Counted from the stretch's first letter, positions 13,747 to 32,609 are shown. The stretch: DNA of 64,000 nucleotides from Treponema sp. (GCA_017449285.1 JAFSJX010000105.1:112687-176686), one strand, 5' to 3'. Numbers and translations are program-made. Notes: generated by a model from the letters alone, not told the origin.

Positions 13747-13748
13747 TG

Positions 13749-13936: not shown

Positions 13937-16735
13937 ATGAAAAAGAATTCTTTTAAGATTATGCTGGTTTGTACGCTGATGCCGCTCTTGTTCGGTTGTC
14001 TCAGCACTGGCAAACGAGATGAGTCGATTCAAAGCCTGATAAAACAGGGACGCTATGATGAGGCAAAAGAGCGTTTCGGCACAAAAGAAAATATCAATGC
14101 GCAGGATGAGGACGGAAATACGGCGCTCCATGTTGCGGCACGTATGAACGAGTCGGAACTATGCAGTTTCCTCATCATAAAGGGTGCGAATACCGAAATC
14201 GTAAATATGTCGGGAGACACTGCGCTGCTTGTGGCGGTAAAAAATGAATGCAAGACTGCCGCACACGCATTGACCAAACTGAGCGCCAATATTTTCGCAA
14301 AAGACGCGGAAGACAATTCTGCGATTGAACTTGCCCTTGCAAAGGAAGAACCGTGGTATGACGTAATGATAAATGCGCAGACTGGAAAAATCCGCAGCGT
14401 AGACGGAGAAACCATCGTCCACTATTTTGTGAAGACGCGCGATGAAAAAGCAATCGGTATGTGCATCCGTTCGGAACTTCCTATATCAGAAAAAGATAAC
14501 GAGGGCATAACTCCGCTTGCGCTCGCATTTCAGTCGCCAAAAGATTCTGCGGCAATCCGCATTGCAGTTCAGCTTATTCTCGGTGGCTCAGAATTGGTAC
14601 GCGGCGACTTCGATTATTTTGAAGATTCAATCAAAACCCACAATGTTCTGCTTCGTTTCACTGACGGCCAGACTCCGCTCCATCTTGCAACAATTCTTGG
14701 TCATACAGGAGTAGTTGACTATCTTCTGAAGAACAACGGCTCTATTCGCGTACAGGATATGATGCAAGCCCAGGACATCGGTGGCGCGACCCCCCTGCAT
14801 GAGGCTGTCCGTTATGGTCGTGACGACATCGTAAAACTACTTCTCGCAAAGGGAGCAAACGTAAACGCCCTTGATGCGATGGGGAAGACTCCCTTCCTGC
14901 TGATTATTCCCGTAAACGCCCAACTTCCGATTTATACGATGCTTATAAAAGCGGGCGCAAAGGTAGACCAAAAAGATATGTATGGCGACACGGTTCTGCA
15001 TATCGTCACTATGGGGGCGACAACGAACGAAGTGCTTAAACTGCTGGTTTCAAAAGGTGCGCCCATCAACGAACGGAATAAGCAAGGCGTAACGCCGCTC
15101 CAACTTGCGGTGGAAAAAAATCTTGGGGCGCACGTGCTGTTCTACGCGAATTCGGGCGCGGACATCAATGCAGAGGATAAGGAAGCAAATACGCCGCTCA
15201 CTCTTGCCTTGCACAAAAAAGACATTGAGATGATTCAGACACTGATTACCAAAAAGAATGTAACGGCAAAAGATTCCGCAGGAAACACTCCCCTGCACAC
15301 GGCTATCCTGCACGATGCTCCGTTTGAATACATTCAGTACATCGTGAACACCGGAGCAGACGTGAATGCACGCAACAAGGACGGAGATTCAGTTCTCTAT
15401 CTTGCCACGCAGAAAAATATGAAAAACGTGGGTGAACTGCTCATCGACAAGGGCGCGGATATTTTTGCCACCAATATGCAGAATTATTCTCCGCTCAGAC
15501 TGGCTCTTGAAGCAGGTGGTGACGTGCAGAGTTGGCTGATTACTTCCCGCACGATGAATATGACCGACGGAAGCGGAAACACTCCCCTGCACTATGCGTC
15601 TGAATGGACCCTGAACAAGGCAGTTCTTTCGTTGATTGAAAAAGGAGCGCAAATCAATGCGGTCAATTCAAACGGTGAGACAGCGTTGTTCTCTGCGGTA
15701 AAGGCAGACAGTCCTTCAACGATTAATGTGCTTGCAGAAAACGGAATCGTCACCGATGCCCGCAGCAATCTGACCCGCGACCATTTGGGCAATACACCGC
15801 TCCATGCCGCAGGAAGATGGAACGCACTCCACGCCGCACAGACGCTTCTGACATTCGGAATGGACGTAAACGCACAGAACCTAAGCGGAAAAACGCCGTT
15901 AAGTGATTGCTGCCGTTCGGGAAAAACTGAGATGGCACAACTTCTAATCATGAACGGAGCGAACGTAAACGCAACGGATGCGGCAGGTCGTTCGATTCTG
16001 ATTGACGCGGTTCAGGCTCGGAATGAAAGCATGGTTTCGTTGCTTTTGCAGTATGGCGCAAATCCGCAGATTCAGGAGATGTCAGGACGTAATGCATATC
16101 ATGAAGCGGCTTTGAATGGAAACACAAACATCATCACTATGCTACGAAATGCAGGAGGAAATCCGCTTAGCCGCGACAGTTATGGTGAAACGCCGTTCTC
16201 TCTTGTCCTGCGCTCAAATGACGAGAATCTGATTCACACGGTACTCGGCGCAAACACAATGATAGTTGACTCTGATGGAAACACGCCGATACACATCGCC
16301 GTTGAAAGACAGGCATCCGCAAAAATGCTGAATATGTTGCTGAACATGGGGTATCCGATAAATCAGCGCAACGGAAAAGGCATCACCCCGCTCTATCAGG
16401 CGGTTATCTCAAATCAAAAGACGCTGGTAGAAGCGCTTCTGGAAAGAGGGGCAGACCCATTCGTTGCGACAACTTCGGGCGACAGCGCGCTTCTGAACAC
16501 TATTACCGCGAAAAACTACGGTCTGCTTGACATCATTGCAAAGTATTGTGCTACAGGAACGGATATGCAGGGCGACACCATCATGCACTATGCGGCGCGC
16601 GCTGCTGACACGGAAACGGTTCAGCGTCTGCTTCAGATGAATCTTGACCGTAAGGTACGAAATATTTCCGGCGAGACTCCCGCTGATATGGCTGCCCGCT
16701 GGGGACGCGGAGACATCGCAATGCTGCTTCGCTAA
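13937..16735 (+). CDS. Ankyrin-repeat lipoprotein (about 25 ANK repeats)
   Basis: Signal peptide with lipobox (LLFGC). Reiterated G-TPLH-A...G....V..LL..GA motifs throughout. Confidence 0.85.
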   Translation: MKKNSFKIMLVCTLMPLLFGCLSTGKRDESIQSLIKQGRYDEAKERFGTKENINAQDEDGNTALHVAARMNESELCSFLIIKGANTEIVNMSGDTALLVAVKNECKTAAHALTKLSANIFAKDAEDNSAIELALAKEEPWYDVMINAQTGKIRSVDGETIVHYFVKTRDEKAIGMCIRSELPISEKDNEGITPLALAFQSPKDSAAIRIAVQLILGGSELVRGDFDYFEDSIKTHNVLLRFTDGQTPLHLATILGHTGVVDYLLKNNGSIRVQDMMQAQDIGGATPLHEAVRYGRDDIVKLLLAKGANVNALDAMGKTPFLLIIPVNAQLPIYTMLIKAGAKVDQKDMYGDTVLHIVTMGATTNEVLKLLVSKGAPINERNKQGVTPLQLAVEKNLGAHVLFYANSGADINAEDKEANTPLTLALHKKDIEMIQTLITKKNVTAKDSAGNTPLHTAILHDAPFEYIQYIVNTGADVNARNKDGDSVLYLATQKNMKNVGELLIDKGADIFATNMQNYSPLRLALEAGGDVQSWLITSRTMNMTDGSGNTPLHYASEWTLNKAVLSLIEKGAQINAVNSNGETALFSAVKADSPSTINVLAENGIVTDARSNLTRDHLGNTPLHAAGRWNALHAAQTLLTFGMDVNAQNLSGKTPLSDCCRSGKTEMAQLLIMNGANVNATDAAGRSILIDAVQARNESMVSLLLQYGANPQIQEMSGRNAYHEAALNGNTNIITMLRNAGGNPLSRDSYGETPFSLVLRSNDENLIHTVLGANTMIVDSDGNTPIHIAVERQASAKMLNMLLNMGYPINQRNGKGITPLYQAVISNQKTLVEALLERGADPFVATTSGDSALLNTITAKNYGLLDIIAKYCATGTDMQGDTIMHYAARAADTETVQRLLQMNLDRKVRNISGETPADMAARWGRGDIAMLLR

Positions 16736-18662: not shown

Positions 18663-18665
18663 TTT

Positions 18666-18836
18666 TTACTTTCCTTCCTTTGAAAGAGATTTAAAATCAG
18701 TTTTCAGCGGATTTTTAACGCCGTCGTTTTCCAGTTTTTCGATGATTGCAATCGCGTAGTTCAGTTTGTCCAGCAAATCTGCCGCGCAATAGGTTTTGAT
18801 TTTTTGGAGCGCGTCCAAAACTTCGGTATTTGTCAT
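18666..18836 (-). CDS. Hypothetical 56-aa protein upstream of nhaC
   Basis: Read manually (MTNTEVLDALQKIKTYCAADLLDKL...). AAGGAGGAAC lies upstream and the stop is 3 nt before the nhaC ATG. Confidence 0.4.
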   Translation of the reverse strand: MTNTEVLDALQKIKTYCAADLLDKLNYAIAIIEKLENDGVKNPLKTDFKSLSKEGK

Positions 18837-18876
18837 AGTTCCTCCTTATAGTCCTATGTTCTATCTTCTTATGAAT

Positions 18877-19854
18877 TCATTCTAAAACACATCTTACTTT
18901 GTGTCTATCTCCGATTTCTTTCCACTCAGGAATTTCCGAGCGGCATTTTTCGCTTGCATGGGAACAGCGGTAGGCGAACGGACAGCCACGCAGAGTTTCC
19001 AGCGTTGTCTTGACCTCGCCGTTTGTCGCCGCATGAGTTCCGTTGCTTCCCGCAAAGAGCAGTTTGGTGTACGGATGTGCGGCAGATTTGTACAAATCGG
19101 CGGCGGGGGCTTCCTCAACCAAAAGACCGCTGTACATCACGCCAATGGTGTCACAAAAATAGCAGGAGACCCGCAAATCATGGGCGATGAACAAAAATGA
19201 GATGCCGCGCTTTTCACGAATCTCCTGCAGGAGATTGAGAATCTGGCTCTGCACGGAAACGTCGAGCGCACTCACAACCTCGTCGCAGAACATCACTTCC
19301 GGCTTCATAATGAGCGCGCGCGCAATGGAAATACGTTGCCGCTGTCCGCCTGAAAATTCGCTGGGTCTGCGCTCCAAATCGCTGGGGTCAAGCCCTACTT
19401 CTTCCATAATATGCGCCGCCTCGTCATACGCGACTTTTTTTCCCGGCCAGATTGACGAATACTTGTAACTTGCCGTAAGGATATTAAACACCGTGAGCCG
19501 CGGATTGAGTGAGCGTGACGGGTCTTGGAACACGTACTTAATTTTTTCGCGGTAGCGGCGCAATTCGGCGCGGTTGTAAAGGAGAATATTCTGGGGGTCG
19601 CCGTCGCTCGCCCTGCTTTCTTTTGGCGTATACCAGATTGAGCCTCCATCGGCTTTGTACATTCTGACAAGCATTCTTGCCGTCGTTGTTTTTCCGCAGC
19701 CACTTTCGCCCACAAGGCCATAGGTTTTTCCGCGCTCAATGCCGAATGAAACGTCGTTCACCGCGTAGACAAATCGGTCGTTTTTGGCGAAAAATCCTGC
19801 ATCCAGCGTAAACTTTTTGGTCAGGTGGTCGGCTTGAATAATATAATCGCTCAT
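18877..19854 (-). CDS. oppF: Oligopeptide/dipeptide ABC transporter ATP-binding protein (OppF/DppF type)
   Basis: Walker A GESGCGKTT, signature LSGGQRQR, and a C-terminal oligopeptide-transporter domain (HPYTKLL, CPFAYRC). Confidence 0.85.
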   Translation of the reverse strand: MSDYIIQADHLTKKFTLDAGFFAKNDRFVYAVNDVSFGIERGKTYGLVGESGCGKTTTARMLVRMYKADGGSIWYTPKESRASDGDPQNILLYNRAELRRYREKIKYVFQDPSRSLNPRLTVFNILTASYKYSSIWPGKKVAYDEAAHIMEEVGLDPSDLERRPSEFSGGQRQRISIARALIMKPEVMFCDEVVSALDVSVQSQILNLLQEIREKRGISFLFIAHDLRVSCYFCDTIGVMYSGLLVEEAPAADLYKSAAHPYTKLLFAGSNGTHAATNGEVKTTLETLRGCPFAYRCSHASEKCRSEIPEWKEIGDRHKVRCVLE

Positions 19855-19857
19855 ATC

Positions 19858-21708
19858 TCACTTCGTAACGAACGCAATCGCGCCATCCCAGTTTTTAGGT
19901 GGGTTCTTGATAAATTCCGCACAACGGGAAAACATCAGTTTTGCAGCCTTGTCTCCTGGTAAGGCGGAAAGTGCCTTCTCAAAATAATCTCGTGCCAAGT
20001 TCCAAATGCCCTGTTTGTACAAATCCATTCCCTTGATGTACGAATCCTTGTATGCGAACGGAAATTCATCTTCGCTGCGGTCAACGGCATAAATGGAGAC
20101 TGCATCTTTTTTGCCTTTTACGCGAACGTCATCAAGATGGCGGAAACAGAACGAATCTTCGCCCGCATCTTCCAGTACGCTCTGGCTGACCAGAATCTGC
20201 GTACCGTATGTCTTGGTCAGTCCCTCAAGGCGGCTTGCAAGATTTACGTTGTCGCCGATAACGGAATAGTCGGTCTTGTCTTTTGAGCCGATTGAGCCAA
20301 CGATTATATCGCCGTAGTGAATGCCGATGCCAATGTTGAACTTCATCCCTTCTGGCAGAACCAAGTCGCCCAGTTCCACGGTGGGAAGAGCCGCCCGCAT
20401 CTCACAGGCTGCGGCAACCGCACGACGGCAATTGTCCTTGTAACTGACGGGAGTGCCGAATTCCGCCATAATCGCGTCTCCGATGAATTTGTCGATTGTG
20501 CCGCCATGTTTTTTGATGATTTCGACCATCGTGGAAAAATAGCGGTTCAAAAAGGCAACCAGCACGTCCGCCTTGTTCTTTTCGCTGATGTTCGTAAACG
20601 CACGGATGTCGCTGAAAAGTATTGCCACCGCCCTTGTTTCGCCAACGCTGATTTTTTCATTTTTTTCGTCGGACTGCATAACCAGACTGTCGATAATTTC
20701 TTCCGGCACAAAACGGCTGAATGCGCGGCGGATTCGCTTTTCAAAAAAGATTTTTTCTTTGACAATCAGTGCCTTGTCAAAAACAGGGGCGGCGTTTTTT
20801 ACGCAGAAGAGGAAGAGATTTCTTTTTTCCCGCGTGATGTTGCCTTCGCTTACGATATGCACCGTGCCGAACCGTTTGCTGCCCGAAATTGTCTTAAAGG
20901 TTTCGCTCTCATAACTTGAAAGCTGGACGGTTTCGCTGAAAAATCGGTCAAGTTCAGGATTGATACCCAGCCGCTTGGGAACGATTTTAACCGCATCGTA
21001 ATTTTTCTGCACGCTTCCAAAATCAGCCACGCATACGTTCAGGAAATCTGCAATCTCTTTTTTGCCAATATTGCCGGAACTAACAAAATAGCCGTGCGGG
21101 CCGTCATTTTCTACGACATACAGGGCAGCAATCGGCACTTCGCAGACTTCGGCGATAAAAAGCAAAAATGACTTTACGATTTCTTCAAGGCTTTCAAGAC
21201 TGTCTATCAGATTCAGCAGTTTTTCGAGCATCGCGTTTTTGCGGGATTCCCAGTGCAACAGTTCCGCCGTTTTTTGAAAAAGAAACGTGTCGTCAAACTT
21301 GCCCTGCTTTTGCGCCATAAACGAATTGTCCAGCTCAGGCACGGAAAGTTCGGCAAGCACCGCCACTTTCTGCACAAATGAATCGCGGTCAAGCCTAATA
21401 AAAGAAGTTACCCCACATTCCAGGGCAAAAACTTCGTCAAGCGGGGTTGGGAAATTGGCGTACATACCGATTGCCAAATCCTCAAAACAGTCCATTGACC
21501 GCAGAATTCTGACGATTTCAAAACTGCGTGGGCTCTGAATGTCAAAATTCAGCAGGAACAAGTCCGGGGGAAATTCAAAAAGATAATAGAGGGCTTTTCT
21601 TCCGTCAGTCACAAATTCAAGCGTGTACTGCTCTTTGTCCAGCGTTTCGGTGAAAATTTTTTGCAATGTCGCGGAAGTTTCAAGGATAAGAATCGTTTTC
21701 GCCATCAT
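19858..21708 (-). CDS. Receiver-like domain / central sensory domain / class III adenylate-guanylate cyclase / TPR-like tail
   Basis: Cyclase motifs AILFSDIRAFT, FIGDAIMAEFG, GIHYGDIIVGSIGS, VIGDNVNLASRLE. The N-terminus is REC-like (LILETS...LFLLNFDIQSP). The start overlaps the cheA stop (ATGA). Confidence 0.8.
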   Translation of the reverse strand: MMAKTILILETSATLQKIFTETLDKEQYTLEFVTDGRKALYYLFEFPPDLFLLNFDIQSPRSFEIVRILRSMDCFEDLAIGMYANFPTPLDEVFALECGVTSFIRLDRDSFVQKVAVLAELSVPELDNSFMAQKQGKFDDTFLFQKTAELLHWESRKNAMLEKLLNLIDSLESLEEIVKSFLLFIAEVCEVPIAALYVVENDGPHGYFVSSGNIGKKEIADFLNVCVADFGSVQKNYDAVKIVPKRLGINPELDRFFSETVQLSSYESETFKTISGSKRFGTVHIVSEGNITREKRNLFLFCVKNAAPVFDKALIVKEKIFFEKRIRRAFSRFVPEEIIDSLVMQSDEKNEKISVGETRAVAILFSDIRAFTNISEKNKADVLVAFLNRYFSTMVEIIKKHGGTIDKFIGDAIMAEFGTPVSYKDNCRRAVAAACEMRAALPTVELGDLVLPEGMKFNIGIGIHYGDIIVGSIGSKDKTDYSVIGDNVNLASRLEGLTKTYGTQILVSQSVLEDAGEDSFCFRHLDDVRVKGKKDAVSIYAVDRSEDEFPFAYKDSYIKGMDLYKQGIWNLARDYFEKALSALPGDKAAKLMFSRCAEFIKNPPKNWDGAIAFVTK

Positions 21709-23810
21709 GCCTCTCCTACAAGTTCTTTTATCGTGCTGATAAGTTTTCCGCGTTCAAAACCGCCCTTTGAAATAATCGCGCTCGCCCGCAAGCGGTCAAA
21801 TTCACGCTGCACCTCATCGCTTTGGTCTGCGGAAACGATGACGACCGGCGCATTTTTGTACTGCTCCATGCGGCGCAAATTGTCCAAAAGCACCAGCCCT
21901 GTCATACGTGGCATATCTTTGTCGCTCAAAATCAGGTCATACTGCTTTTCGCGCGCCTTTTCAAGGCCATCCAGCCCATCAAACGCCGTATCCACGACAA
22001 ATCCCGCGCCTTCAAGAATCGTCTTTTCAATCTGCCGCGTCGTGTCAGAATCATCGACTACAAGAATCCGCACCGTCCGTTTTTTGGTCGCCGCCTCGTA
22101 CTTTTTGATGTCATAGCTACGGAGCGACTTAAATTTTTTAAGGATGTCCGGCACGTGGAGAATCGGCACAATGTCATAATGCTCGTCAAAAACGATGCCC
22201 TGCAGAATCGAAAAATTCTTAAACGCCTTTGGAAGCGGTTTTACCACGAGCGAAACATACTGCTGCACTTCCTCCACAATAATGCCGATTCGCTGTTCCA
22301 TATATTCGGCGATGAGAATGGAATCTGCTTCCTGATTATAGATTCCTTTCCGCTCATCAAACAGCGTGGAAAGCGAAAAGCACGGGATAAGTTGCCCCTC
22401 AACTTTGATGTAACTCTGGTTGTGCAGGGTGATATATTCGCTTTTCTTTCTATATATAATGTCAACAATGTGTTGCGCGGGAATAAGATATTTGTCCTTG
22501 TTTGAGAAAACGAACAGCCCCTGCAAGGTTGAAAGCGAAAGCGGAAAGTGCAAAATGAAAGACGTGCCTTTTCCCGCCTCGCTTTCAATTTTGATTCTGC
22601 CCTTGATTTTTTCAACGTTTGCCCAGACGACATCAAGACCCACGCCTCGACCCGAAAGTTCCGTAACGGTGTCTTTGGTGGAAAAGCCTGACTGGAACAA
22701 AAACTGGGAAAGTTCCTTGTCGCTCATCTTTTTGATTTCGTCCGCCCGTTCAGGATACAGGCTGTTCGCTTTGGCACGAATTTTGTCGTAGTCAAGACCA
22801 CGCCCGTCATCGCTGATTTTCAACTCAATATGCTTTGTCGCCCGCACACAGGTTATGCTGACCGTTCCAATCTCCGGTTTCCCCGCCGCCTTTCGCTCTT
22901 TGGGAGTTTCAAGTCCGTGGTCAAGGGCGTTCCGCACCAAATGCATAAGAATGTCGCCCAGTTCTTCCAAAATCACTTTGTCAATCGCAATGTCGGTCTC
23001 TGGAATCACGCACTTTACTTTTTTGCCCAGATTCATTGCCTCCAGCGCAATCGTGTTTTCCAGCGGGCGAAGGACGATGCTGATGGGAAGCATGCGGAGG
23101 TCAAACACCTGCTCCTGAACGCTGAAAATCGTGGTCTCCAGCGCGTAAATGTCCGACTCAAACTGCTTGCGGATTTTTGAGAGCGCGTGGCTGCCCGTTT
23201 TTTCCTCAATTTTCTGCAATTCACCAAGTTGGTGCTTCAGGTGGAATTCGCGCGTAATCATCGAATCAAACGCGGTGATAATCTCGTTCACGCGGGAAAG
23301 TTTGATGCGGATTGACTGGATTTCACTTACATTCTCGTTAAAATCATCCTCATCATCGTCAGCAACAAACTCGCCTTTTTCCCTGCGGATTTCGTCAAGG
23401 AAAGCGTCAACATCAATCAATTCGCCCGCCGCAAGTTTGTCGCAATACTGGAGATACCGCTCAATGTTCTGCTCATCCGTGCCCTTTTTTGCGATTGCTG
23501 AAGCGCACTCGGCGATTTTGTCCGCGGCGGCAAACACGAATTTCACGAGCCGCTCTGAATTCTTAATCTGCCCGTCCTTAACGCTCTTGTAAATATCCTC
23601 AACCGCATGCGACAATTTTTCAATCGTGGGAAAGCCGAGCATACGGGAATTTCCCTTTATCGTGTGCAGATTTCTGAGCAGACGGGTCATAATGTCAGAA
23701 TCATTCTGCGTCAGTTTTAAATCTATGATGTCTTTTCTGGAAGATTCAAGGAGTTCCTTTACTTCGCTGACAAAACTTTCGGTAATATCGGCTGAAACAA
23801 CGGCCATCAC
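21705..23810 (-). CDS. cheA: Chemotaxis histidine kinase CheA with fused C-terminal receiver
   Basis: Hpt (HTIKGNSRMLGF), HATPase (GRGVGLD), a CheW-like domain, and a canonical REC (VVDDSD, LILSDKDMP, AIISKG). Confidence 0.9.
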   Translation of the reverse strand: MMAVVSADITESFVSEVKELLESSRKDIIDLKLTQNDSDIMTRLLRNLHTIKGNSRMLGFPTIEKLSHAVEDIYKSVKDGQIKNSERLVKFVFAAADKIAECASAIAKKGTDEQNIERYLQYCDKLAAGELIDVDAFLDEIRREKGEFVADDDEDDFNENVSEIQSIRIKLSRVNEIITAFDSMITREFHLKHQLGELQKIEEKTGSHALSKIRKQFESDIYALETTIFSVQEQVFDLRMLPISIVLRPLENTIALEAMNLGKKVKCVIPETDIAIDKVILEELGDILMHLVRNALDHGLETPKERKAAGKPEIGTVSITCVRATKHIELKISDDGRGLDYDKIRAKANSLYPERADEIKKMSDKELSQFLFQSGFSTKDTVTELSGRGVGLDVVWANVEKIKGRIKIESEAGKGTSFILHFPLSLSTLQGLFVFSNKDKYLIPAQHIVDIIYRKKSEYITLHNQSYIKVEGQLIPCFSLSTLFDERKGIYNQEADSILIAEYMEQRIGIIVEEVQQYVSLVVKPLPKAFKNFSILQGIVFDEHYDIVPILHVPDILKKFKSLRSYDIKKYEAATKKRTVRILVVDDSDTTRQIEKTILEGAGFVVDTAFDGLDGLEKAREKQYDLILSDKDMPRMTGLVLLDNLRRMEQYKNAPVVIVSADQSDEVQREFDRLRASAIISKGGFERGKLISTIKELVGEA

Positions 23811-24664
23811 CGTACCTCCTTTTTATGAAAATAGAATACCGTTCCGTCAAAGACTTTTTCCAGCGACGACGGCATAATATCGGTGTCAATCTGGGCAATT
23901 TCGCTCATCGACACGAACAGAATTCCGTCAGGCGCAAGGCAACTTTCGGCGATAATGCGGAGAATCTTTGCGCGGAGTTCCTGATTGAAGTAGATAAACA
24001 CGTTACGCAAGAAAATGATGTTCTGATTTTTGGGCAGGAGCATTTTGCATGAAGGCACATCGATTACCGAAAGATTGATTTTTTGCGTTCTGATGCAGTC
24101 TTTTATCTCATCGGGGAAGACAATCTTTTTGTCATCTTTCCGATATGGCGCGAGCAAGCCCTGAAAAGCAACGCCGTCCACAGAGCGGATTGACGAATCC
24201 AAGAACACGCCGCTTTTGCAATGCTCCAGGACGATGGAATTGATGTCGCTCGCCGTCACCGAAACATTCAGCCCGCACGATTTTGCAAGCAACGCAAGGG
24301 AATAGGCTTCCTCACCGTAAGAACAGGCCGCGCTCCAAATCTTGATTCTCATGCTTCCGAACATCGCTTTCCACTGCGGGAAAATCGTATTTTTTAGGAC
24401 GGTAAACTGCTTTTCCTCGCGGAAAAAATAAGTTTCGTTCACCGTGCTTTCGTTCACGAATTCGGTAAAAAATACGTCGTCAGAAAGAAGCGCGTCCTTG
24501 CACTGCTCCACCGAAAGATTCTTTTCCTTGATTCTGCGCTCAATGTATGATTTGATGCCACCACGATGACTTGCCCGCGGAACGATTCCTGTCCGACTCT
24601 GTAAGATTGCGAGAATTGATTCAAATGCTTCTTCCGTAATGGTCACCAACTTGTCCTGAATCAT
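23807..24664 (-). CDS. cheR: Chemotaxis methyltransferase CheR
   Basis: NETYFFREEKQF and IWSAACSYGEEAYSLA motifs. 4-nt overlaps with both neighbours. Confidence 0.9.
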   Translation of the reverse strand: MIQDKLVTITEEAFESILAILQSRTGIVPRASHRGGIKSYIERRIKEKNLSVEQCKDALLSDDVFFTEFVNESTVNETYFFREEKQFTVLKNTIFPQWKAMFGSMRIKIWSAACSYGEEAYSLALLAKSCGLNVSVTASDINSIVLEHCKSGVFLDSSIRSVDGVAFQGLLAPYRKDDKKIVFPDEIKDCIRTQKINLSVIDVPSCKMLLPKNQNIIFLRNVFIYFNQELRAKILRIIAESCLAPDGILFVSMSEIAQIDTDIMPSSLEKVFDGTVFYFHKKEVR

Positions 24665-25644
24665 TTGCCCACCAATTCCAAAATTCGTCTGGAAATCTCA
24701 GGACGGGGCAATACCTCTTTTGCTCCTCCCAATGAAATCGCCGCCGCAGGCATTCCAAACACCGCGCACGTTGATTCGTCTTCTGCGATTGTCCAGCCAC
24801 CACGCTCACAAATTTCCTTACAGCCTTCCGCCCCGTCCGCACCCATTCCCGTAAGCAGAACGGCAAGACACGCATTCTTGTAGAATTTTGCCGCGCTTCT
24901 GAACAGTTTGTTCACTGCGGGGCGCAAGAACCGCTCCGGGTCATCATTTGAAAGTCTGAGGACGGGATTTCCGTTCGGGCGCACATAGTCAATCACCAGA
25001 TGCTTGTCAGCAGGCGCCATGTATACAACACCGGCTCTCGCTTCCTCGCCGTTCTCGGCAAGTTTAATCTGAACATTGTGACACACGCCCGAAAACCAAT
25101 GCGCCATATTTTTGTCCGCACCAATTTCAAGATGCTGGATGTACAAAATCGGAAGCGGGAAATGGTCGCCCAACGAGGAAAGCACCTGCGAAACGGCAGA
25201 AGGTCCGCCCGTAGAAGCTCCGATGCACACAATTTTGAAAGAACCGTTCCCGTCCGCGCATGTAGAGCGTTTTTCCGAAGACGCGGAGATTTTTCCTAGT
25301 TCCTTCACCAGCACATCAAAAAATTCTTTGGTGTAGGAATTAAGCCGTGGTTTTTCCAGCGTCTCCACAATGCCCTGATACTGCACGCCAGAAATTTTAG
25401 AATCAGACAGAAGGACAACAGGAAGCCGTAGTTCATCGGTTATAATATGCAGACTTTCTCTTCCAGCCGGATCGTGAATGTCAAAGCCACAGATAAGCGC
25501 GTCAGGGCGTTCATTTTGTGCGGAAAGAATGACTTTTTTTCCGTTCGACACGGAGGCGATGATTTCAATTTCTGCGTATTTTCTTAAATTCTGTTCGATG
25601 ATAGCACGGACTACAGCAGAACCGTCCGCGATGATGAGTTTCAT
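24661..25644 (-). CDS. cheB: Chemotaxis methylesterase CheB (REC + esterase)
   Basis: Motifs GASTGGP, HLEIG, GMGADGAEG and FGMP. Confidence 0.9.
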   Translation of the reverse strand: MKLIIADGSAVVRAIIEQNLRKYAEIEIIASVSNGKKVILSAQNERPDALICGFDIHDPAGRESLHIITDELRLPVVLLSDSKISGVQYQGIVETLEKPRLNSYTKEFFDVLVKELGKISASSEKRSTCADGNGSFKIVCIGASTGGPSAVSQVLSSLGDHFPLPILYIQHLEIGADKNMAHWFSGVCHNVQIKLAENGEEARAGVVYMAPADKHLVIDYVRPNGNPVLRLSNDDPERFLRPAVNKLFRSAAKFYKNACLAVLLTGMGADGAEGCKEICERGGWTIAEDESTCAVFGMPAAAISLGGAKEVLPRPEISRRILELVGK

Positions 25645-26177
25645 TTTTTCTCTCCCCGATTTTTATTTATAAGCCCCGCAGAAAAAAATGTCCGCAGAAG
25701 ATTGTCTAGCGACAGAAGAATCTGCTTCCGCGTAAGACGATTGTCCTTTTCGTCCGCAAGAAAACCTATCGCCGCCACGCCACATTTTGTCTGTGCAGTG
25801 CGGATGCTTTTGGGAATCAGCCGAAGCGAAGAAATGTCAACCTGTCTGCTCGAAATCGCGCTGTTCACCGAAATCGCAAAATTTCCGCTTGCAGGGAACG
25901 GTGTCTGCGTATACGTCGCAATCAACGTCCGCACGTCTTTCGCAAAATCACGCATCCGCATCACCAGAATCACGCCACAGTTTTCCTTTGACTTGCACGA
26001 AAATTCTTTTTCCAAAAGCGCGCCAATATGAATGTGCGGCAAAATTTCCTCGTTAAATGCAATGTTCCGTACATTTTTCGCAACATCAAGGTACATTCCG
26101 AAGACCATATACTTGCTCTGAATGAGAAAATCCACGCTGTCGTAGGCGATGCAGGTAAAATATTCAGTCGCTTCCAA
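25641..26177 (-). CDS. Divergent CheW-like coupling protein (uncertain)
   Basis: 178 aa. The pattern of hydrophobic strands resembles a CheW domain (ISVNSAISSRQVDISSLRLIP, GVAAIGFL...ILLSLDNLL) but is weak. Embedded in the che operon with 4-nt and 14-nt overlaps. Confidence 0.45.
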   Translation of the reverse strand: MEATEYFTCIAYDSVDFLIQSKYMVFGMYLDVAKNVRNIAFNEEILPHIHIGALLEKEFSCKSKENCGVILVMRMRDFAKDVRTLIATYTQTPFPASGNFAISVNSAISSRQVDISSLRLIPKSIRTAQTKCGVAAIGFLADEKDNRLTRKQILLSLDNLLRTFFSAGLINKNRGEKK

Positions 26178-26670
26178 GGTCTTTCCTTATGAGCAGTTCA
26201 AATGCGTTCGGATTCAAGACGGGAATTTCCTCGCCGTTATAGCCGAGCGTTCCTAAGAAAAATGCTTCCTCATCGTTCCCAGGAATAAGGTTCAGTTCAT
26301 TTTCGTCCATTTCGGCAAAAAACAGGATGTCGGAGATATGAAGCGAAAGTTGGTCGTCATCGCGCTTCAAAATCAAAAAGAGCGGTTCTTCAGGCGGGAC
26401 TGTCTCTTTTTCGCCAAGCAGAAGACGTGGATTTATGACGGTAAACGGATCGCCGCGCCGGTTCAGCACGCCCTCAATATAATTCGGCATAAACGGCAGT
26501 CGGTACACAGCGACATCACGGATAATTTCAAGGACATCGCCTGATTTTACGGCATATTTTTTGCCCGCAATGGAAAAAAACAGCCACGTTATCATGCGTT
26601 TTTCTTCAACGACCTCATCTTCCGTCTTATTCTTCAGCGCAATCTGCTCGATTATCTCTTCGTTCATCAA
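26164..26670 (-). CDS. cheW: CheW
   Basis: FFSIAGKKYAVKSGDVLEIIRDVAVYRLPFMPNYIEGVLNRRGDPFTVINP is a typical CheW sequence. Confidence 0.85.
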   Translation of the reverse strand: MMNEEIIEQIALKNKTEDEVVEEKRMITWLFFSIAGKKYAVKSGDVLEIIRDVAVYRLPFMPNYIEGVLNRRGDPFTVINPRLLLGEKETVPPEEPLFLILKRDDDQLSLHISDILFFAEMDENELNLIPGNDEEAFFLGTLGYNGEEIPVLNPNAFELLIRKDLGSD

Positions 26671-26685
26671 AACTCCTTTGCCGTG

Positions 26686-28485
26686 TCATTCCGAACGTGA
26701 TTCAGAATTTTTTTTGTCGCCCAATTCTTCGGCAATTGACTTTAAATTCTGTGAGGTCTGCGAGATATGCTCGGTCGCCGACGTAAAATTTTCAACGCCA
26801 GAGGCAATTTGTTTGAGCGTGATAAGAATCTGCTCGCTCGCCGCTGCCTGCTGCTGGATAATCGTGGTGATTTTTCCCGCGCTGTCCGCCGTGCTTTCGG
26901 AGGCATTTTTGATGCTTGTAAAGCGTTCCTCCAGATTCTTCGCGTTCTCAACGCCCTCTTGGATTTTTTCAGTTCCATTTTCGCTCGCAAGGATAAGGCT
27001 GTCGGAACTCTGCTGGATTTCGGTAATCCGCTCCTTGATTTCCTTAGTGCCGTCAATAATTCCATCCGCAAGCCGCCGAATTTCCGTTGCGACGATGTGG
27101 AAATTGCGCCCCGCCTCGCCCGCACTGCTCGCTTCCAGTTCCGCATTGAACGCGATGATTTTTGCCTGGTCTGCGACCGAATTAATCAGCGTAACGATGT
27201 CCCAGATGTTCTCAATCTTGTCGCCCAGCGATTTGATTCCAGAAATCGTGTTCAGGTTCGTGGCGGCAATTTCTTGCAGTTGCTTTACATTCTCTTCAAG
27301 GTAGGCAACTCCGTCCGAAACATCGCCGCTCGTCTTGGTGGCAGCCCCAGAAACATCCTTGATTTTCTGAGAGATGTCCTCAGAAAGCGCGGTATTGTCT
27401 TCCATCGTGGCGACGATTTCCTTGACCGCTGCGCTCTGATCCTGCGCTGTAACCGCCGTTTCTTTTGAGGAGACCGCAAGATTCTGAATCTCCTCCAAAA
27501 TGCTGATTCCCACTTTTTTCTCATTTGAATGAAGCAGATGCAATCTGAGGAACACAAAGAACACCAAAAAGATGAACACAAGCACCACAAGGCAGAGCGA
27601 AGCCGGAACGATTGCCCCCGCGATAAATGCCGGCACCGTGTAATTTTTTGTCACAACGATATTCCAGCAGATTTCCCCCAGCGGCTCAAAGGCATACACG
27701 GTGTTTTCCTCCGCGATAAAAGTCTCGCCGATTTCAGCCAACTCATCCTCACGCCCGCGGAAATCGGGAATAATCTCCGTGATAGGCGTTTTATTTTCCA
27801 GATGCTGCAAATCCATTGAGCCGGTCGTTTCCAGCGCGTCGTTGTAAATGTACATCGCATAATTTTCGGGCAAATCCGAATACAGCGAATTGACGAATTC
27901 TGAAATCGGGATGCCCGTGCCAATCAGCCCCAAAAAGTCATTGTTCTGATTGCGGACAATGCAGTTGACCCACATAAACGTCTGTTTTAGCCCGATGTCA
28001 TAGTTGACGTTGAATTCATAGGATTTGTCCGAATTCATCAGGCTGACATACCATTCGCTTGAAGGCTCGCGCTTATTCATCGTGTACAGATATTTGTTGT
28101 TGGAATAATAGCGCAGGTCAGCGTCACTAATCATAAAAGAAAGTTTGCTCAAAAATGAATTCTGATAGGCAAGCACCTCGTCAAACGCATCCGTCCGCAG
28201 CGCGTCATCAGAGGGATGCTCAAAATACTTGACGATGAGCGGAGATTTTGCCATCTGCAAGGCAAGCACGAGCTGCTCATTCAAGCCAAGGTCAAATTTG
28301 AGTTTCATATTCTTTACAAACTGGGAAAGTTCCTTGTGGCTCGCTCTCTCAAAATTGGCGCGTGCGCTTTTGGCGATGAAAAAGAAACTTCCCGCAAGAA
28401 TAGCGACAAGAACCACCGCAAAAACCAATGCCAGAAGCGGGAACGGCAGCCGTTTTGATTCATTTTTGACTTTAAGTAAGCTCAT
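26686..28485 (-). CDS. Methyl-accepting chemotaxis protein (Cache-like sensor)
   Basis: Two TM segments flank a ~270-aa periplasmic domain. The highly conserved signalling hairpin IIAFNAELEASSAGEAGRNF is present. Confidence 0.9.
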   Translation of the reverse strand: MSLLKVKNESKRLPFPLLALVFAVVLVAILAGSFFFIAKSARANFERASHKELSQFVKNMKLKFDLGLNEQLVLALQMAKSPLIVKYFEHPSDDALRTDAFDEVLAYQNSFLSKLSFMISDADLRYYSNNKYLYTMNKREPSSEWYVSLMNSDKSYEFNVNYDIGLKQTFMWVNCIVRNQNNDFLGLIGTGIPISEFVNSLYSDLPENYAMYIYNDALETTGSMDLQHLENKTPITEIIPDFRGREDELAEIGETFIAEENTVYAFEPLGEICWNIVVTKNYTVPAFIAGAIVPASLCLVVLVFIFLVFFVFLRLHLLHSNEKKVGISILEEIQNLAVSSKETAVTAQDQSAAVKEIVATMEDNTALSEDISQKIKDVSGAATKTSGDVSDGVAYLEENVKQLQEIAATNLNTISGIKSLGDKIENIWDIVTLINSVADQAKIIAFNAELEASSAGEAGRNFHIVATEIRRLADGIIDGTKEIKERITEIQQSSDSLILASENGTEKIQEGVENAKNLEERFTSIKNASESTADSAGKITTIIQQQAAASEQILITLKQIASGVENFTSATEHISQTSQNLKSIAEELGDKKNSESRSE

Positions 28486-28512
28486 AGGGTCTCCTGTTTT
28501 TCTCTGCTTATT

Positions 28513-30240
28513 TTATTTACGCAGTTCTTCTGCAATCACCTGCAATTTCTGGGAGGCTTCCGATACATTTTCCGTTGCGCCCCTGAACCGGTCTACGCCG
28601 GAAGAAATTTGTTTGAGCGTCAGCAAAATCTGCTCGCTTGCCACCGCCTGCTGCTGGATAATCGTGGTGATGTCGCCCGCGCTGTCTGCCGTGATTTCGG
28701 AGGCATTTTTGATGCTCGTAAACCGTTCCTCCAGATTTTTCGCATTTGAAACACCCTCGCGGATTTTTTCCGTTCCACTTTCAGAAGCAAGGATGAGCGT
28801 GTCGGAACTCTGCTGAATCTCCGTAATTTTCGCCTTGATTTCCTTTGTGCCGTTGATGATTCCGTCCGCAAGCCGCCTGATTTCCGTTGCGACGATGTGG
28901 AAATTCTTTCCCGCCTCGCCCGCGCTGCCCGCTTCCAGCTCCGCATTGAACGCGATGATTTTTGCCTGGTCTGCGACCGAATTAATCAGCGTAACGATGT
29001 CCCAGATGTTCTCAATTTTGTCGCCCAGCAGTTTGATTCCCTCAATGGTGTTCTGGTTTGCAAGCGCAATCTCCCGGAGTTGCTTGACGTTCTGCTCCAA
29101 GTATGAGACACCTTCGGCAACGTCATCGCTCGTCTTTGACGCGACATCCGAAACATCCTTGATTTTTTTGGAGATGTCCTCGGAAAGCGCGGTGTTGTCT
29201 TCCATCGTCGTGACAATTTCTTTGACCGCCGCGCTCTGATCCTGCGCCGTATTCGCGTTCTCCCTGGAAGAAAGCGCAAGTTTATGCGTTTCGTCAATCA
29301 GGTGGTTGCTCGCCCGCTCTTCCTTCCGCCTCATTCGGCTGATAATGAACGCCGTAATCGCCATGATGACGATAAAAAGAATGGTGAACGCGGCAGTCAG
29401 CAGAATCTTTGTTGCCGTGGAAAATGCGTTTACGTCCTTTATGCTTTTTCCCAGCACATAGAACCACCCCGTCATCGGAATCTGCGCGACACGGAACACA
29501 TATTTTATGCCATCAACCTTGCCGAACACAAAATCATCGCCAACCTCAAGCATTTTTTCGCCCAGTTTGCGGTATTTGCCGTTCTCAATCGTAAGGATGT
29601 TGTCGTCTGCCGTGTATATCTCATGCATAAAAAAATCGCCGCGCGGAGAAAGAATGAACGATTTGTCAAGCAAATCCGTCTTTACCTCTCCGACAAACAT
29701 CTGCAAATCTTCCAGCGGAAAGTCAAAGGCGATAACACCGTCAAGTTCCTCATTCTTATACACTGCAATCGAAAACGTCATCACAAGTGCGTTAGTCAGG
29801 TCGCTCACATACACATCGGAATAATACATCTCGCCCGCATTTTCGACCGCCCCGGAATACCATGCGCAGTCCGTGGGAACATACCCGTCAGGAACGTCAA
29901 TATTCGGTCCCTTGAACATCGTTCCGTCCGCACGGCAACCATAAAACCCGGGGAAATCAGGATATGCAAGCGACATCTTCTCAAAAACGGCATTTGTCTC
30001 GTCATCATCGTCAAAAAAACCGTCCTTAAAAAGCCATGCGATTGCCTCCGTCATCTTTGAAGGCGCGGTCAGCGTATCCTCAAAATTCAGCACACATTCC
30101 CGCATATTGGAATACATCAATCGGTACGCCTGCTCTTCGGTGAAATTGGAGACAAGATTTGCCACAATAATCGTCGTGAGAATAAAGAACGCCGCAACAG
30201 ACACGCCAATCAGCAACAACGCCCTCTTTACAAAAGCCAT
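28513..30240 (-). CDS. Methyl-accepting chemotaxis protein (Cache-like sensor), paralogue of 26686..28485
   Basis: The signalling domain is about 85% identical to its neighbour, while the sensor domain is unrelated (YSDVYVSDLTNALVMTFS is Cache-like). Confidence 0.9.
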   Translation of the reverse strand: MAFVKRALLLIGVSVAAFFILTTIIVANLVSNFTEEQAYRLMYSNMRECVLNFEDTLTAPSKMTEAIAWLFKDGFFDDDDETNAVFEKMSLAYPDFPGFYGCRADGTMFKGPNIDVPDGYVPTDCAWYSGAVENAGEMYYSDVYVSDLTNALVMTFSIAVYKNEELDGVIAFDFPLEDLQMFVGEVKTDLLDKSFILSPRGDFFMHEIYTADDNILTIENGKYRKLGEKMLEVGDDFVFGKVDGIKYVFRVAQIPMTGWFYVLGKSIKDVNAFSTATKILLTAAFTILFIVIMAITAFIISRMRRKEERASNHLIDETHKLALSSRENANTAQDQSAAVKEIVTTMEDNTALSEDISKKIKDVSDVASKTSDDVAEGVSYLEQNVKQLREIALANQNTIEGIKLLGDKIENIWDIVTLINSVADQAKIIAFNAELEAGSAGEAGKNFHIVATEIRRLADGIINGTKEIKAKITEIQQSSDTLILASESGTEKIREGVSNAKNLEERFTSIKNASEITADSAGDITTIIQQQAVASEQILLTLKQISSGVDRFRGATENVSEASQKLQVIAEELRK

Positions 30241-30258
30241 TTTTTACTCCTATGCGCA

Positions 30259-30267
30259 ATTATATCA
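30259..30267 (-). promoter_or_regulatory. Extended -10 (TGATATAAT) upstream of the first MCP gene
   Basis: Minus strand reads TGATATAAT, 18 nt containing AGGAG, then ATG (30240). Confidence 0.45.
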
Positions 30268-30315
30268 CGATTCTGCAAAATATAAAAATCAAAATTACAA
30301 TTTTTATTCATTTTT

Positions 30316-30402
30316 GGGCGCACGGCTACGCCGCCGGGCTATCCGCCCTTCGCTCACGCTCATTGCCGCAAGCGGCAACTTCGGGGCTACTATCCCTTGC
30401 GC
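30316..30402 (+). repeat. GC-rich dispersed repeat, copy a (inverted relative to b and c)
   Basis: Contains cgctcacgctcattgccgcaagcggcaa...ggggctactatcccttgcgc, which aligns with the reverse complement of copies b and c. It overlaps the last codons and double stop of the OppCD gene. Confidence 0.65.
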
Positions 30403-32594
30403 TCCGCTTTCCAGCACACCGTTCCCACCTGCTTACATCCATCTTTCGCATAGGCACACCGCGGTGCGAACGGACAACCCGGCTCCGGGTGCGCGGGGTC
30501 AGTCACACGGCCAGGAATGGAGACCAGTTTTTCGGTCGTGTAGTGTGTGCCGAATTTCGGGCTGGAAGCGAGCAACGCCTGCGTGTACGGGTGGCGGGCG
30601 TGGCTCATAATCTGCTCACTCGTTCCTCTCTCCATAATCAGACCGCCGTACATAACGATGATGTTGTCGCACAATCCCGCCACCAAATCAATGTTGTGGC
30701 TGATGAATATAATGGAAAGTTTCCGTGTCTTTCGTAAATCGGCGAGCAGGGAAACAATCTGCGCCTGAATCGTCACGTCAAGCGCGGTGGTCGGCTCGTC
30801 AGCGATCAACAGTTCGCACCCCTGCGCCAAAGAAAGTGCGATTCCGATTCGCTGTAACTGCCCGCCCGAAAACTGGTGCGGATAGTTTTTCAGGCGGCTT
30901 TCGGGGTCGGGTAAGCCCACTTCGCTTAAAAGCGCGACCGCCTTTTTGTCAGATTCAGCGCGCGGCATTTCCGGGAATGAATTTCTGAATGTCTCAAAAA
31001 ACACCGCGCCGATATTCTGCAAGGGGTCAAAACTGCGTCCCGGCTCCTGAAAAATCAGCCCGATTTTCTTTCCACGGTAAGCGCGCATTTCTTTTTGGCT
31101 GAGCGCGGTAAGTTCAACACCATCGAAGAAGATTTTTCCTTCAACGGTCGCGTTTGACGGATGCAAGGCAGGAATTGCAGTTGTGGTGACGGATTTTCCG
31201 CTTCCAGACTCGCCCACGATACCAAGGATTTCCCCGCGCTCCATGCTGAACGAAACGCCCCGCACGGACTGAATGGTGGTATACGAAGAGCCGCGCAGCA
31301 CGGAAAACGACACGCGAAGATTTTGCACGGAAAGCCAAGCCGCAGGCACTGCGTTAGGGATAGTAGGGGCGGCGCAAGCCGTTGCGGAATGAGCCTGCGA
31401 ATGGAGCAATGGAGCGTCAGCGGAATCCCGAATAGCCCGACCGCGAAGCGGGAACGCCCTAAAAACCTGCGCTAATCTGCGTCCACCTGCGTTTTTTTTC
31501 TTTCGCCATGTGGGAAAAATCACATGATATGGGTCAAAATAGTCGCGGAGCGCGTCGCCCAAGAAATTGAACGCAAGCGTAACGGCAAGCAACAGCCACA
31601 CCGGGGTGAGAAGCCACGGAAAATTCTTGAGGTTTGAAAGCGTTGAGATGTCGCGGTTTATCAGGCTTCCCCAACTCACCGCCGGGTCTGCAATGCCCAA
31701 GCCAAGATAGGACAAGGTGGTTTCGCTCATAATAAAGCCCGGAATGGCAAGCGTTGTGCTGACGATAAGAAGGCTCGTAATCTGCGGAATGATGTGCGCA
31801 AAAATAATCACCGTGGACGGAATGCCTTCCAACGCCGCGTCCTGCACAAATTCCTCGCGCTTGATTGCGTGAACCATGCCCCGAAGCGTGCGCGCGCTCC
31901 CCGGCCAGCCCACCAGCGACAAAATCACCGTGATTATCATGTAGGACGTGCCAGAATCCATCTTGCTGTTCAAAAGCGAGCGCAAAAACAGAATTAAGTA
32001 CAAGCCCGGAATGAGCATAAAAAATTCGGAGAAGCGCATAATCGCCCAGTCCGTTTTGCCGCCGTAATAGCCCGCAAGCCCGCCAAGCAGAATTGCCAGC
32101 ACCAGCGAAATCGCGCTCGCCACAAAACCAATCGTAAGCGAAATGCGGCTTCCGTAGACGATGCGGCTAAAAAGGTCGCGTCCCAGATTGTCCGAGCCGA
32201 GCAAAAACACGGGATAGGTTTCGCCGGTAACGGGGTCTGGCACTACACCGAACAAGTGGCGGCTCGTCTGGAACAGCCCGAACAGGCGGTACGGCTCACC
32301 TTTGACAAAAAATGAAATCTTGTGGCGGAATTCCGCGCCTTTGACTTTCGCATATCGCCACGTAATCGGATTTAAGACGCGATACTCGCAGGCGACAATG
32401 CCTTTTGCGCCGTTTGCCCCGCCAAAAGAAAACTCGATGTTTCCGGGATGGAACGTGTCTTCCTCAAAAATGCGCGTAGGCGTGTACGGCGCGATGAACG
32501 GGGCAAAAATCATCATCAGGTACAGCGCAATCAGCACGATGACGGAGATGATGGCAAGAGGACGTGTCTTTAGATAATTGAAAAGTCGTGTCAT
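30390..32594 (-). CDS. Fused oligopeptide ABC permease (OppC-like) and ATPase (OppD-like)
   Basis: The N-terminal half is a 6-TM BPD permease ending ...LGDALRDYFDPYHV. A ~65-aa low-complexity linker follows, then an ATPase (GESGSGKS, FSGGQLQR, HPYTQALL, CPFAPRC). Start MTRLFNYLK at 32594. Confidence 0.75.
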   Translation of the reverse strand: MTRLFNYLKTRPLAIISVIVLIALYLMMIFAPFIAPYTPTRIFEEDTFHPGNIEFSFGGANGAKGIVACEYRVLNPITWRYAKVKGAEFRHKISFFVKGEPYRLFGLFQTSRHLFGVVPDPVTGETYPVFLLGSDNLGRDLFSRIVYGSRISLTIGFVASAISLVLAILLGGLAGYYGGKTDWAIMRFSEFFMLIPGLYLILFLRSLLNSKMDSGTSYMIITVILSLVGWPGSARTLRGMVHAIKREEFVQDAALEGIPSTVIIFAHIIPQITSLLIVSTTLAIPGFIMSETTLSYLGLGIADPAVSWGSLINRDISTLSNLKNFPWLLTPVWLLLAVTLAFNFLGDALRDYFDPYHVIFPTWRKKKNAGGRRLAQVFRAFPLRGRAIRDSADAPLLHSQAHSATACAAPTIPNAVPAAWLSVQNLRVSFSVLRGSSYTTIQSVRGVSFSMERGEILGIVGESGSGKSVTTTAIPALHPSNATVEGKIFFDGVELTALSQKEMRAYRGKKIGLIFQEPGRSFDPLQNIGAVFFETFRNSFPEMPRAESDKKAVALLSEVGLPDPESRLKNYPHQFSGGQLQRIGIALSLAQGCELLIADEPTTALDVTIQAQIVSLLADLRKTRKLSIIFISHNIDLVAGLCDNIIVMYGGLIMERGTSEQIMSHARHPYTQALLASSPKFGTHYTTEKLVSIPGRVTDPAHPEPGCPFAPRCAYAKDGCKQVGTVCWKAERKG
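31351..31459 (-). repeat. GC-rich dispersed repeat, copy b, translated as the OppC-OppD linker
   Basis: Shares agggatagtag, gccgttgcggaatgagc, atagcccg and cgccc blocks with copies a and c. Confidence 0.65.
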
Positions 32595-32609
32595 AAAAAC
32601 CTTACTGCA

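Follow-up and report, generated by a model that had tools for sequence, protein, structure and literature searches.

Chemosensory pathways that serve functions other than motility are common in genomes, and few of them have a known output; the main paradigms are the Wsp system, which acts through cyclic di-GMP (c-di-GMP), and the Pil-Chp system, which acts indirectly through cyclic AMP (cAMP). In Pseudomonas aeruginosa, the class III cyclase CyaB is under the control of Pil-Chp, a system with two CheW-type adaptors (PMC13599512). A regulator described as a 'REC - CHD mononucleotidyl cyclase' is listed in the cheR-TPR cluster of the delta proteobacterium NaphS2 (PMC3447774, Table S2), and CyaC of Spirulina/Arthrospira, built as REC-GAF-GAF-HK-REC-class IIIb (REC, receiver; HK, histidine kinase), gains activity when the adjacent receiver is phosphorylated (summarised in PMC3009899). 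Receiver-cyclase fusions can also work without a phosphorelay, since in the Dictyostelium protein ACR cyclase activity is independent of the receiver aspartates (PMC3009899). Here we analyse a 64-kb stretch of Treponema sp. DNA (GCA_017449285.1, JAFSJX010000105.1:112687-176686; hereafter the window, in which coordinates are counted from the first nucleotide unless another locus is named) that carries a chemosensory (che) operon ending in a receiver-fused class III cyclase gene, directly followed by the transporter gene oppF. We find that the pairing of CheA with this cyclase extends to distantly related spirochaetes, that the cyclase receiver of the window and its closer relatives is predicted to have lost its phosphorylation chemistry, and that the junction with oppF is most simply read as the product of a local insertion.

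Nine contiguous open reading frames (ORFs) occupy the minus strand at 18877-30240, and ORF calls and Pfam agree with the order that an earlier note on this stretch had given: two methyl-accepting chemotaxis proteins (MCP1 and MCP2), CheW, a CheW-like protein (hereafter protein X), CheB, CheR, a CheA-REC hybrid, a REC-like class III cyclase, and OppF (Table 1). By Pfam, the core Che unit is complete, with MCPs, CheW and CheA (Hpt, HATPase and P5) together with the adaptation enzymes CheR and CheB; the Hpt histidine of CheA sits within an LHTIKG motif, and no P2 domain was detected. The signalling domain of MCP1 can be aligned with that of CtpM without a change in length. The note had also remarked that a stand-alone CheY and flagellar genes are missing, and our searches agree: tblastn with Escherichia coli CheY across the 64 kb matches the CheA receiver alone, and no flagellar gene is found among the ORFs scanned.

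Read off the sequence, the junctions of the unit are as tight as had been claimed. Gaps of 27 and 15 nt separate MCP1 from MCP2 and MCP2 from CheW, CheW and protein X overlap by 14 nt, and the next three junctions (X/CheB, CheB/CheR and CheR/CheA) overlap by 4 nt each. The cheA stop and the cyclase start share an ATGA (21708-21705), directly followed by a second ATG at which the database orthologues begin, and the cyclase stop lies 3 nt before the ATG of oppF. AGGAG Shine-Dalgarno-like motifs precede most starts. Transcription signals are less distinctive: promoter-like sites are not enriched across the region (18 found versus 14.8 expected), the site in front of MCP1 is a consensus match (Table 1), and a terminator scan gave 18 matches, fewer than the 23.3 in shuffled sequence, with no convincing terminator inside the che-cyclase-oppF unit or after oppF. 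An Rfam scan of the window returned no match, and hence no candidate riboswitch or leader RNA. Another promoter-like site, TAGACA-17-TAGAAT, was seen at 18907-18879.

The partnership of CheA-REC with the cyclase is conserved well beyond the window. In all 19 loci whose upstream gene was examined, the gene directly before that of the cyclase encodes CheA-REC; cyclase identity in this set spans 100% to about 30% (about 23% for the N-terminal half). The pair is found in T. bryantii and other gut and rumen Treponema, in a 49%-identical Treponema, in Sediminispirochaeta (37%), in three termite-gut treponemes or Spirochaetaceae (30-33%) and in the metagenomic loci L090 and L098. Three environmental Spirochaetota loci (L167-L169), whose cyclases belong to the group about 23% identical to the N-terminal half of the window protein, retain the whole order MCP(s)-CheW-X-CheB-CheR-CheA_REC-cyclase. 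A contig profile scan with the full-length family alignment was dominated by generic cyclase motifs and gave at least six full-length relatives among the matches listed; 74 other loci that share the catalytic domain and TPR-like tail only were left out. In the loci examined, no gene for CheY, CheX, CheZ, CheC/D or flagellar parts lies in or beside the cluster, the cyclase being its one invariant non-core partner, and pilus genes are likewise missing from the cluster, both in the window and in the relatives inspected. The proposal that the cyclase is a dedicated partner of the Che system is borne out by its place beside CheA-REC in every locus examined, and we regard the Che-to-cyclase link as strongly supported. 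In T. bryantii, a further che cluster lies about 7 kb downstream of the che-cyclase operon (L001 18558-21821) and encodes an MCP, a CheW and a CheB with a canonical-looking receiver, so that cross-talk between the two systems is possible.

The cyclase has the residues expected of an adenylate cyclase. Its Pfam Guanylate_cyc match is at E 1.3e-27, and among solved structures the catalytic domain comes closest to Cya2, OaPAC/bPAC and the CyaB of P. aeruginosa (3r5g). Alignment with Cya2 and OaPAC places the class IIIb adenylate cyclase residue set in FSDIRAFT, IDKFIGDAI and DYSVIGDNVNLASRLE: both metal-binding aspartates (FSDIRAFT and GDAIMA), the transition-state Asn and Arg (NLASRLE) and the substrate pair, a Lys in IDKFIGD and a Ser/Thr in DYSVIGD, are present. 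The substrate positions hold Glu/Gly in the guanylate cyclase Cya2 and Lys/Thr in the adenylate cyclase OaPAC, and by the established class III rules the Lys and Ser/Thr pair points to an adenylate cyclase of subclass IIIb; from these residues we infer that the product is cAMP. In an AlphaFold2 model, a confident receiver fold (residues 1-118) is followed by a confident alpha/beta domain (139-329) and then by a long helix that leads into the catalytic domain (about 345-545). In a Foldseek search with this model, structures of a dual-sensor histidine kinase (6ob8, 6oap and 6oaq) matched best, by their REC-GAF modules, over about 338 columns at TM-scores of only 0.20/0.36, owing to domain orientation. 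The middle domain (about 139-329) has no Pfam match in the window protein; GAF_2 is recorded for two distant homologues, and the predicted fold, by its secondary-structure pattern, is GAF-like. The protein closes with a TPR-like stretch of 70 residues that terminates in a conserved NPPxNWDG motif.

The N-terminal domain of this cyclase departs from a canonical receiver at its catalytic positions. Across an ortholog set of 119 full-length cyclases (61-100% identity), the phospho-acceptor position after beta3 (DLFLL-N) is Asn53 in 119/119; it aligns with Asp57 of E. coli CheY and with the acceptor of canonical family members, and the modelled beta3 strand covers residues 49-53. The acidic pair is Glu9-Thr/Ser10 (Glu9-Thr10 in the window), the equivalent of Thr87 is Ser/Ala83 (Ala83 in the window), and positions 104-106 read R-L-D, so that the equivalent of Lys109, a K in canonical members, is Leu105. 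The Pfam receiver model PF00072 matches at 22.8 bits, below its cut-off of 30.2; a search with the family profile finds CheY and further receivers at about 1e-22. Asp55, within an 'NFD' that resembles a 'GFD' in CheB, was considered as a shifted acceptor and ruled out: orthologues have D in 57, N in 48 and E in 5 cases, and beta3 stops at 53. Alignment and model agree on a predicted pseudo-receiver, which keeps the receiver fold and would have given up phosphorylation chemistry. The domain is under constraint, with 57% mean identity and 15 invariant positions next to a linker at 21% identity. The CheA-fused receiver retains DD/D/S/K and, judged by these residues, appears to be the sole phosphorylatable receiver left among those of the operon. 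For this lineage, the Wsp-style output through a phosphorylated cyclase receiver that the earlier note suggested is not supported: the acceptor Asp is an invariant Asn, the Lys is lost and the CheB acceptor is lost too. With only the receiver of CheA itself intact, phosphotransfer to the cyclase is unlikely here.

Receiver states differ across the family. In the environmental spirochaetes L167-L169 the acceptor is Asp in both the cyclase and CheB, and all three receivers of the operon are canonical. The cyclase receivers of the termite-gut treponemes L013-L015 are likewise canonical with an acceptor Asp, and no cheB was found in these loci. In L003, L010 and L011 the cyclase acceptor is Asn and that of CheB is Asp; in the window, T. 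bryantii, L006, L008, L090, L094 and L098 the cyclase has Asn and the alignment of CheB shows Gly at the acceptor, with its Lys-Pro and Ser retained. Because the distant orthologues have canonical receivers, a Wsp-like output is probably how the ancestral system worked.

Protein X has no Pfam or NCBIfam match, and its roughly 60 relatives are all Treponema 'hypothetical proteins' without Pfam domains. An AlphaFold2 model built from an alignment of 45 relatives reached a predicted local distance difference test (pLDDT) score of 86 and a predicted TM-score (pTM) of 0.81, and the 18 PDB entries that Foldseek ranks highest for it belong without exception to CheW or CheA-P5 (E 4.5e-7 to 7e-3, TM about 0.5-0.68). 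The 'CheW-like' label that protein X had been given is correct by its modelled fold. Every orthologous operon examined carries the protein in the same place, and the system is predicted to have two CheW-type proteins, the second by its modelled fold. The CheR of L167-L169 is 467-500 aa long (L167 5414-6829, L168 5374-6777 and L169 5204-6706), with a C-terminal extension of 180-220 aa that gives weak TPR matches; CheR-TPR fusions have been reported mainly from alternative-function che clusters (PMC3447774). Residues 18-203 of MCP2, a periplasmic region without a Pfam domain, resemble the N-terminal sensor region of the biofilm phosphatase SiaA (NCBIfam model E 2.2e-23, below the family cut-off).

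The OppC-D fusion, OppB and M13 peptidase genes do lie upstream of the che unit, as first described, and the best NCBIfam models for OppF are DppF/OppF, below their equivalog cut-offs. The further claim, that peptide uptake and the signalling module are genetically linked, is not supported by relatives. A scan with the OppC-D fusion gave 77 loci, annotated by tblastn with the window proteins. In about 40 loci at 55-75% identity, oppB-oppCD-oppF are contiguous on one strand with no che genes (oppA lies upstream in one such locus examined), and closer relatives (75-86% OppCD identity; L096, L099, L100, L115 and L132) have oppB-oppCD-prs-oppF followed by a Na+/H+ antiporter gene, again without che genes. 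The che-cyclase cassette (about 11.4 kb) sits between oppCD and oppF in one subclade only, without prs in the window, L090 and L098, after prs in L006, L091 and L094 and before it in L008; prs is absent from the whole 64-kb window. In T. bryantii, L003/L004, L010 and the environmental spirochaetes, the orthologous che-cyclase cluster has no opp genes nearby. Most simply, a cassette of about 11.4 kb, with its own promoter region, would have been inserted into an opp operon of the peptide/nickel type, and oppF would therefore depend on read-through from the cyclase gene. The cyclase/oppF junction is real, yet it is no evidence of shared function but a lineage-specific accident, and its lesson is that a recent insertion can produce tight gene junctions.

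Our preferred account, which we think is probably right, is that the operon belongs to an ancient spirochaete type of chemosensory system with an alternative, non-motor function and has a REC-GAF-class IIIb adenylate cyclase as its dedicated output, coupled by contact in the present lineage and brought next to oppF by insertion. MCP1 and MCP2 would sense periplasmic ligands; the receptors, CheW and the CheW-fold protein X would form an array that controls CheA autophosphorylation, with CheR and CheB tuning receptor methylation, CheA would phosphorylate its own C-terminal receiver, and the state of the array would be turned into cAMP synthesis. In the ancestral form, represented by the environmental loci, CheA most likely phosphorylates the canonical cyclase and CheB receivers, because their chemistry is intact and Wsp and CyaC offer precedents. 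In the gut and rumen lineage of the window, so placed by the names attached to its closest homologues, the signal would pass by protein contact and not by phosphotransfer, since the CheA receiver is the only phosphorylatable one left: the pseudo-receiver would dock on CheA, at its phosphorylated receiver or its Hpt domain, and the GAF-like domain and the long helix would relay the contact to the catalytic dimer. The oppF gene may now be co-transcribed with the cyclase gene as a by-product of the insertion. That the same picture extends to its evolution, with the CheA-fused receiver alone phosphorylatable, the Asp-less cyclase receiver serving as a docking or allosteric module and the whole descended stepwise from a canonical phosphorelay that persists in free-living spirochaetes, is a tentative proposal, which we regard as possible rather than expected.

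Two other modes of coupling bear on the same residues. A Wsp-like phosphorelay, in which CheA phosphorylates the cyclase receiver and so switches cyclase activity, would draw on the receiver fold of the N-terminal domain, on the fully canonical distant orthologues in the same operon type and on the existence of phosphorylation-activated REC-class IIIb cyclases such as CyaC (PMC3009899), but the Asn in 119/119, the variable Asp55, the Leu in place of Lys109 and the Glu-Thr/Ser acidic pair make it highly improbable for the window. Alternatively, the cyclase could be uncoupled from the array, either constitutive or governed by a small ligand at its GAF-like domain, and its position after cheA could be an inherited gene order. 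Phosphorylation chemistry is indeed gone in both the cyclase and CheB, the GAF-like domain could be a separate input, and the receiver aspartates of Dictyostelium ACR are largely dispensable for cyclase activity (PMC3009899); we nevertheless consider an uncoupled cyclase unlikely, given that the cheA/cyclase junction and the operon order persist over Asn53 orthologues of 61-100% identity and that the 15 invariant positions of the pseudo-receiver stand beside a linker at 21% identity. For the docking step taken by itself, contact with CheA and a cyclase independent of the array are about evenly balanced. An ordinary motility system with CheY encoded elsewhere and the cyclase as a side branch would accommodate the fact that the window is blind to the rest of the genome, the second che cluster about 7 kb away in T. 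bryantii and the occurrence of CheA-REC hybrids in the flagellar classes F3 and F5 (PMC10782961). We doubt it strongly, for the clusters examined lack CheY, CheX, CheZ, CheC/D and flagellar neighbours, no other non-core partner is as constant as the cyclase, and the long CheR with weak TPR matches in the environmental loci is a feature mainly of alternative-function clusters (PMC3447774). Equally improbable is a functionally integrated peptide-transport and signalling module, in which, for example, the dCache receptor would sense peptides and cAMP or the operon promoter would control the supply of OppF: oppF begins 3 nt past the cyclase stop with no room for a promoter of its own, the spacing is equally tight in L006 and L007, and peptidase genes occur in the opp locus (M13 in the window, C13 in L091), but the adjacency is limited to one subclade; its sister lineages, at 75-86% OppCD identity, lack che genes and show oppCD-(prs)-oppF, in T. 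bryantii, L003/L004, L010 and the environmental spirochaetes opp lies away from the che-cyclase operon, and prs on different sides of the cassette speaks for rearrangement and not for a selected order.

Several points weigh against the contact-coupled, non-motor account that we prefer. The sequence data show the gene identities, the junctions, the decay of the receivers, the catalytic residues, the conserved synteny and the ancestral order of opp, whereas we infer the cAMP product, the co-transcription of the unit and the contact-based coupling. A conserved gene order could outlast functional uncoupling for a time, and genes beyond the window could encode a stand-alone CheY or some other output. 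The non-motor reading, in MiST terms the alternative-function class (ACF) as against F3/F5, is suggested indirectly by gene content and neighbourhood. Furthermore, the AlphaFold2 pLDDT falls below 50 in several segments of the catalytic domain, and the interdomain geometry cannot be read from the model. The score is low although the catalytic domain is the best conserved part of the cyclase (86% mean identity) and has close solved homologues, probably because an obligate dimer was modelled as a monomer from a shallow alignment.

Other features of the window are listed in Table 1. The second class III cyclase is transcribed divergently from oppB, as is its counterpart in L091 (76% identity). 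What lies between oppB and oppCD varies, the gap holding the M13 peptidase gene in the window, a C13 peptidase and two unknown proteins in L091 (4079-9978) and an unknown 781-aa protein in L090 (1219-3564), and it may be a recombination hotspot that gathers peptidases. Between oppF and the Na+/H+ antiporter gene, relatives have an ORF of 56-57 codons (L005 5616-5786, L006 13170-13340 and L008 8984-9157), whose counterpart in the window is a 214-nt spacer (18663-18876). The gene for the ankyrin protein adjoins antiporter/TrpR genes in L006, L007 and L099 and oppF in L114, L118, L148 and L151. The integrase and terminase genes mark a probable prophage or remnant beside a tRNA gene, and GC falls to 0.39-0.44 in parts of 4-14 kb. 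Three more genes with roles in signalling or interaction with a host are found at 46456-57538.

Table 1. Features of the 64-kb Treponema sp. window, with the che-cyclase-oppF unit first.
Feature	Coordinates	Strand	Basis or remark
Promoter-like site TTTATA-16-TGnTATAAT before MCP1	30259-30286	-	Best match on strand, 10/12 positions with TG; consensus match only
MCP1, dCache_1 periplasmic sensor	28513-30240	-	Pfam MCPsignal 1.2e-24, dCache_1, MCP-like_PDC_1
MCP2	26686-28485	-	Pfam MCPsignal 1.7e-25
CheW coupling protein, likely start ATG at 26667	26164-26670	-	Pfam CheW 8.2e-15
Protein X, 178 aa, diverged CheW fold (predicted), TTG start	25641-26177	-	AlphaFold2 and Foldseek
CheB methylesterase, degenerate receiver	24661-25644	-	CheB_methylest 2.4e-54; Response_reg below cut-off
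CheR methyltransferase, short form (285 aa), no C-terminal extension	23807-24664	-	Pfam
Hybrid CheA: Hpt, dimerisation/HATPase, CheW-like P5, C-terminal canonical receiver	21705-23810	-	Pfam
Predicted pseudo-receiver/GAF-like/class IIIb adenylate cyclase/TPR-like tail	19858-21708	-	Pfam, AlphaFold2, Foldseek, alignments
OppF-type ABC ATPase	18877-19854	-	Pfam ABC_tran and oligo_HPY
OppC-OppD fusion, likely ATG 32594; left flank of the putatively inserted cassette	30390-32621	-	Pfam
M13 peptidase with Listeria-Bacteroides repeat, between oppB and oppCD	32775-35051	+	
OppB permease	35065-36255	-	Pfam
Second class III cyclase, 1029 aa	36261-39350	+	Reg_prop beta-propeller repeats, Y_Y_Y, C-terminal Guanylate_cyc E 2.2e-55
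Probable prophage or remnant	9218-13822		
Large terminase, gpA-type	9218-11206		
Integrase	12524-13666		
tRNA-Pro(GGG)	13748-13822		
Protein of 936 aa, nearly all ankyrin repeats	13925-16735	+	
Hybrid histidine kinase with receiver and Hpt	46456-49008		
Microbial-type poly(ADP-ribose) glycohydrolase	49023-49871		
Bacterial alpha-2-macroglobulin, 1986 aa	51578-57538		

The treponemes of this lineage are abundant in rumen and gut communities, and a phylum-wide spirochaete operon with a hard-wired class III adenylate cyclase output would give a direct route from Che to cAMP. The series that runs from all receivers canonical, through a dead cyclase receiver, to dead cyclase and CheB receivers would be a natural way to study array signalling without effector phosphorylation. 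Of these results, the operon that links Che to a cyclase across the family is solid, phosphotransfer-independent coupling is interesting but unproven, and the OppF link is ordinary. The earlier note knew of no described pathway from Che to a class III cyclase of this form. This stands for spirochaetes, in that none is reported for Treponema or other spirochaetes in the literature searched, outside which most subscription papers fall; as a general statement it needs qualification, since Pil-Chp/CyaB is known, if indirect, and the NaphS2 REC-cyclase has been catalogued. Nor did the literature searched describe a Che operon in which an Asp-less receiver is joined to a cyclase.

Among described systems, the Wsp system of Pseudomonas (WspA-F with WspR) shares most of the plan: MCP(s), two CheW-type proteins, CheR, CheB, a hybrid CheA-REC and, as the last gene, a receiver-fused nucleotide cyclase, and the WspR structures 3i5a and 3bre are among the Foldseek matches of the cyclase model. 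The spirochaete operon differs in ending with a class III adenylate cyclase where WspR has GGDEF, in placing a GAF-like domain between receiver and enzyme and, in the lineage of the window, in a receiver without the acceptor Asp, so that the phosphorylation step that defines WspR is impossible as such. With Pil-Chp/CyaB it would share a chemosensory array with cAMP output from a class IIIb cyclase, a prediction in the present case, and two CheW-type proteins; CyaB, however, is membrane-bound, encoded elsewhere, without a receiver, reached through the single-domain PilG and tied to type IV pili, whereas the spirochaete cyclase is a soluble enzyme that is fused to a receiver and whose gene is part of the operon. 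NaphS2 likewise has a receiver-class III cyclase within a che cluster, and the long CheR with weak TPR matches of the environmental spirochaetes is a further likeness, but NaphS2 belongs to another phylum and its regulator is a survey table entry without pathway analysis, likened here by description only. CyaC also joins a class IIIb cyclase with receiver and GAF domains, but has its own histidine kinase, a phosphorylatable receiver and no chemoreceptor array. Finally, the pseudo-receiver resembles Asp-less receivers such as that of FrzS in Myxococcus (2i6f, also among the Foldseek matches of the model), in which the receiver fold is kept without acceptor chemistry and is used for protein contacts.

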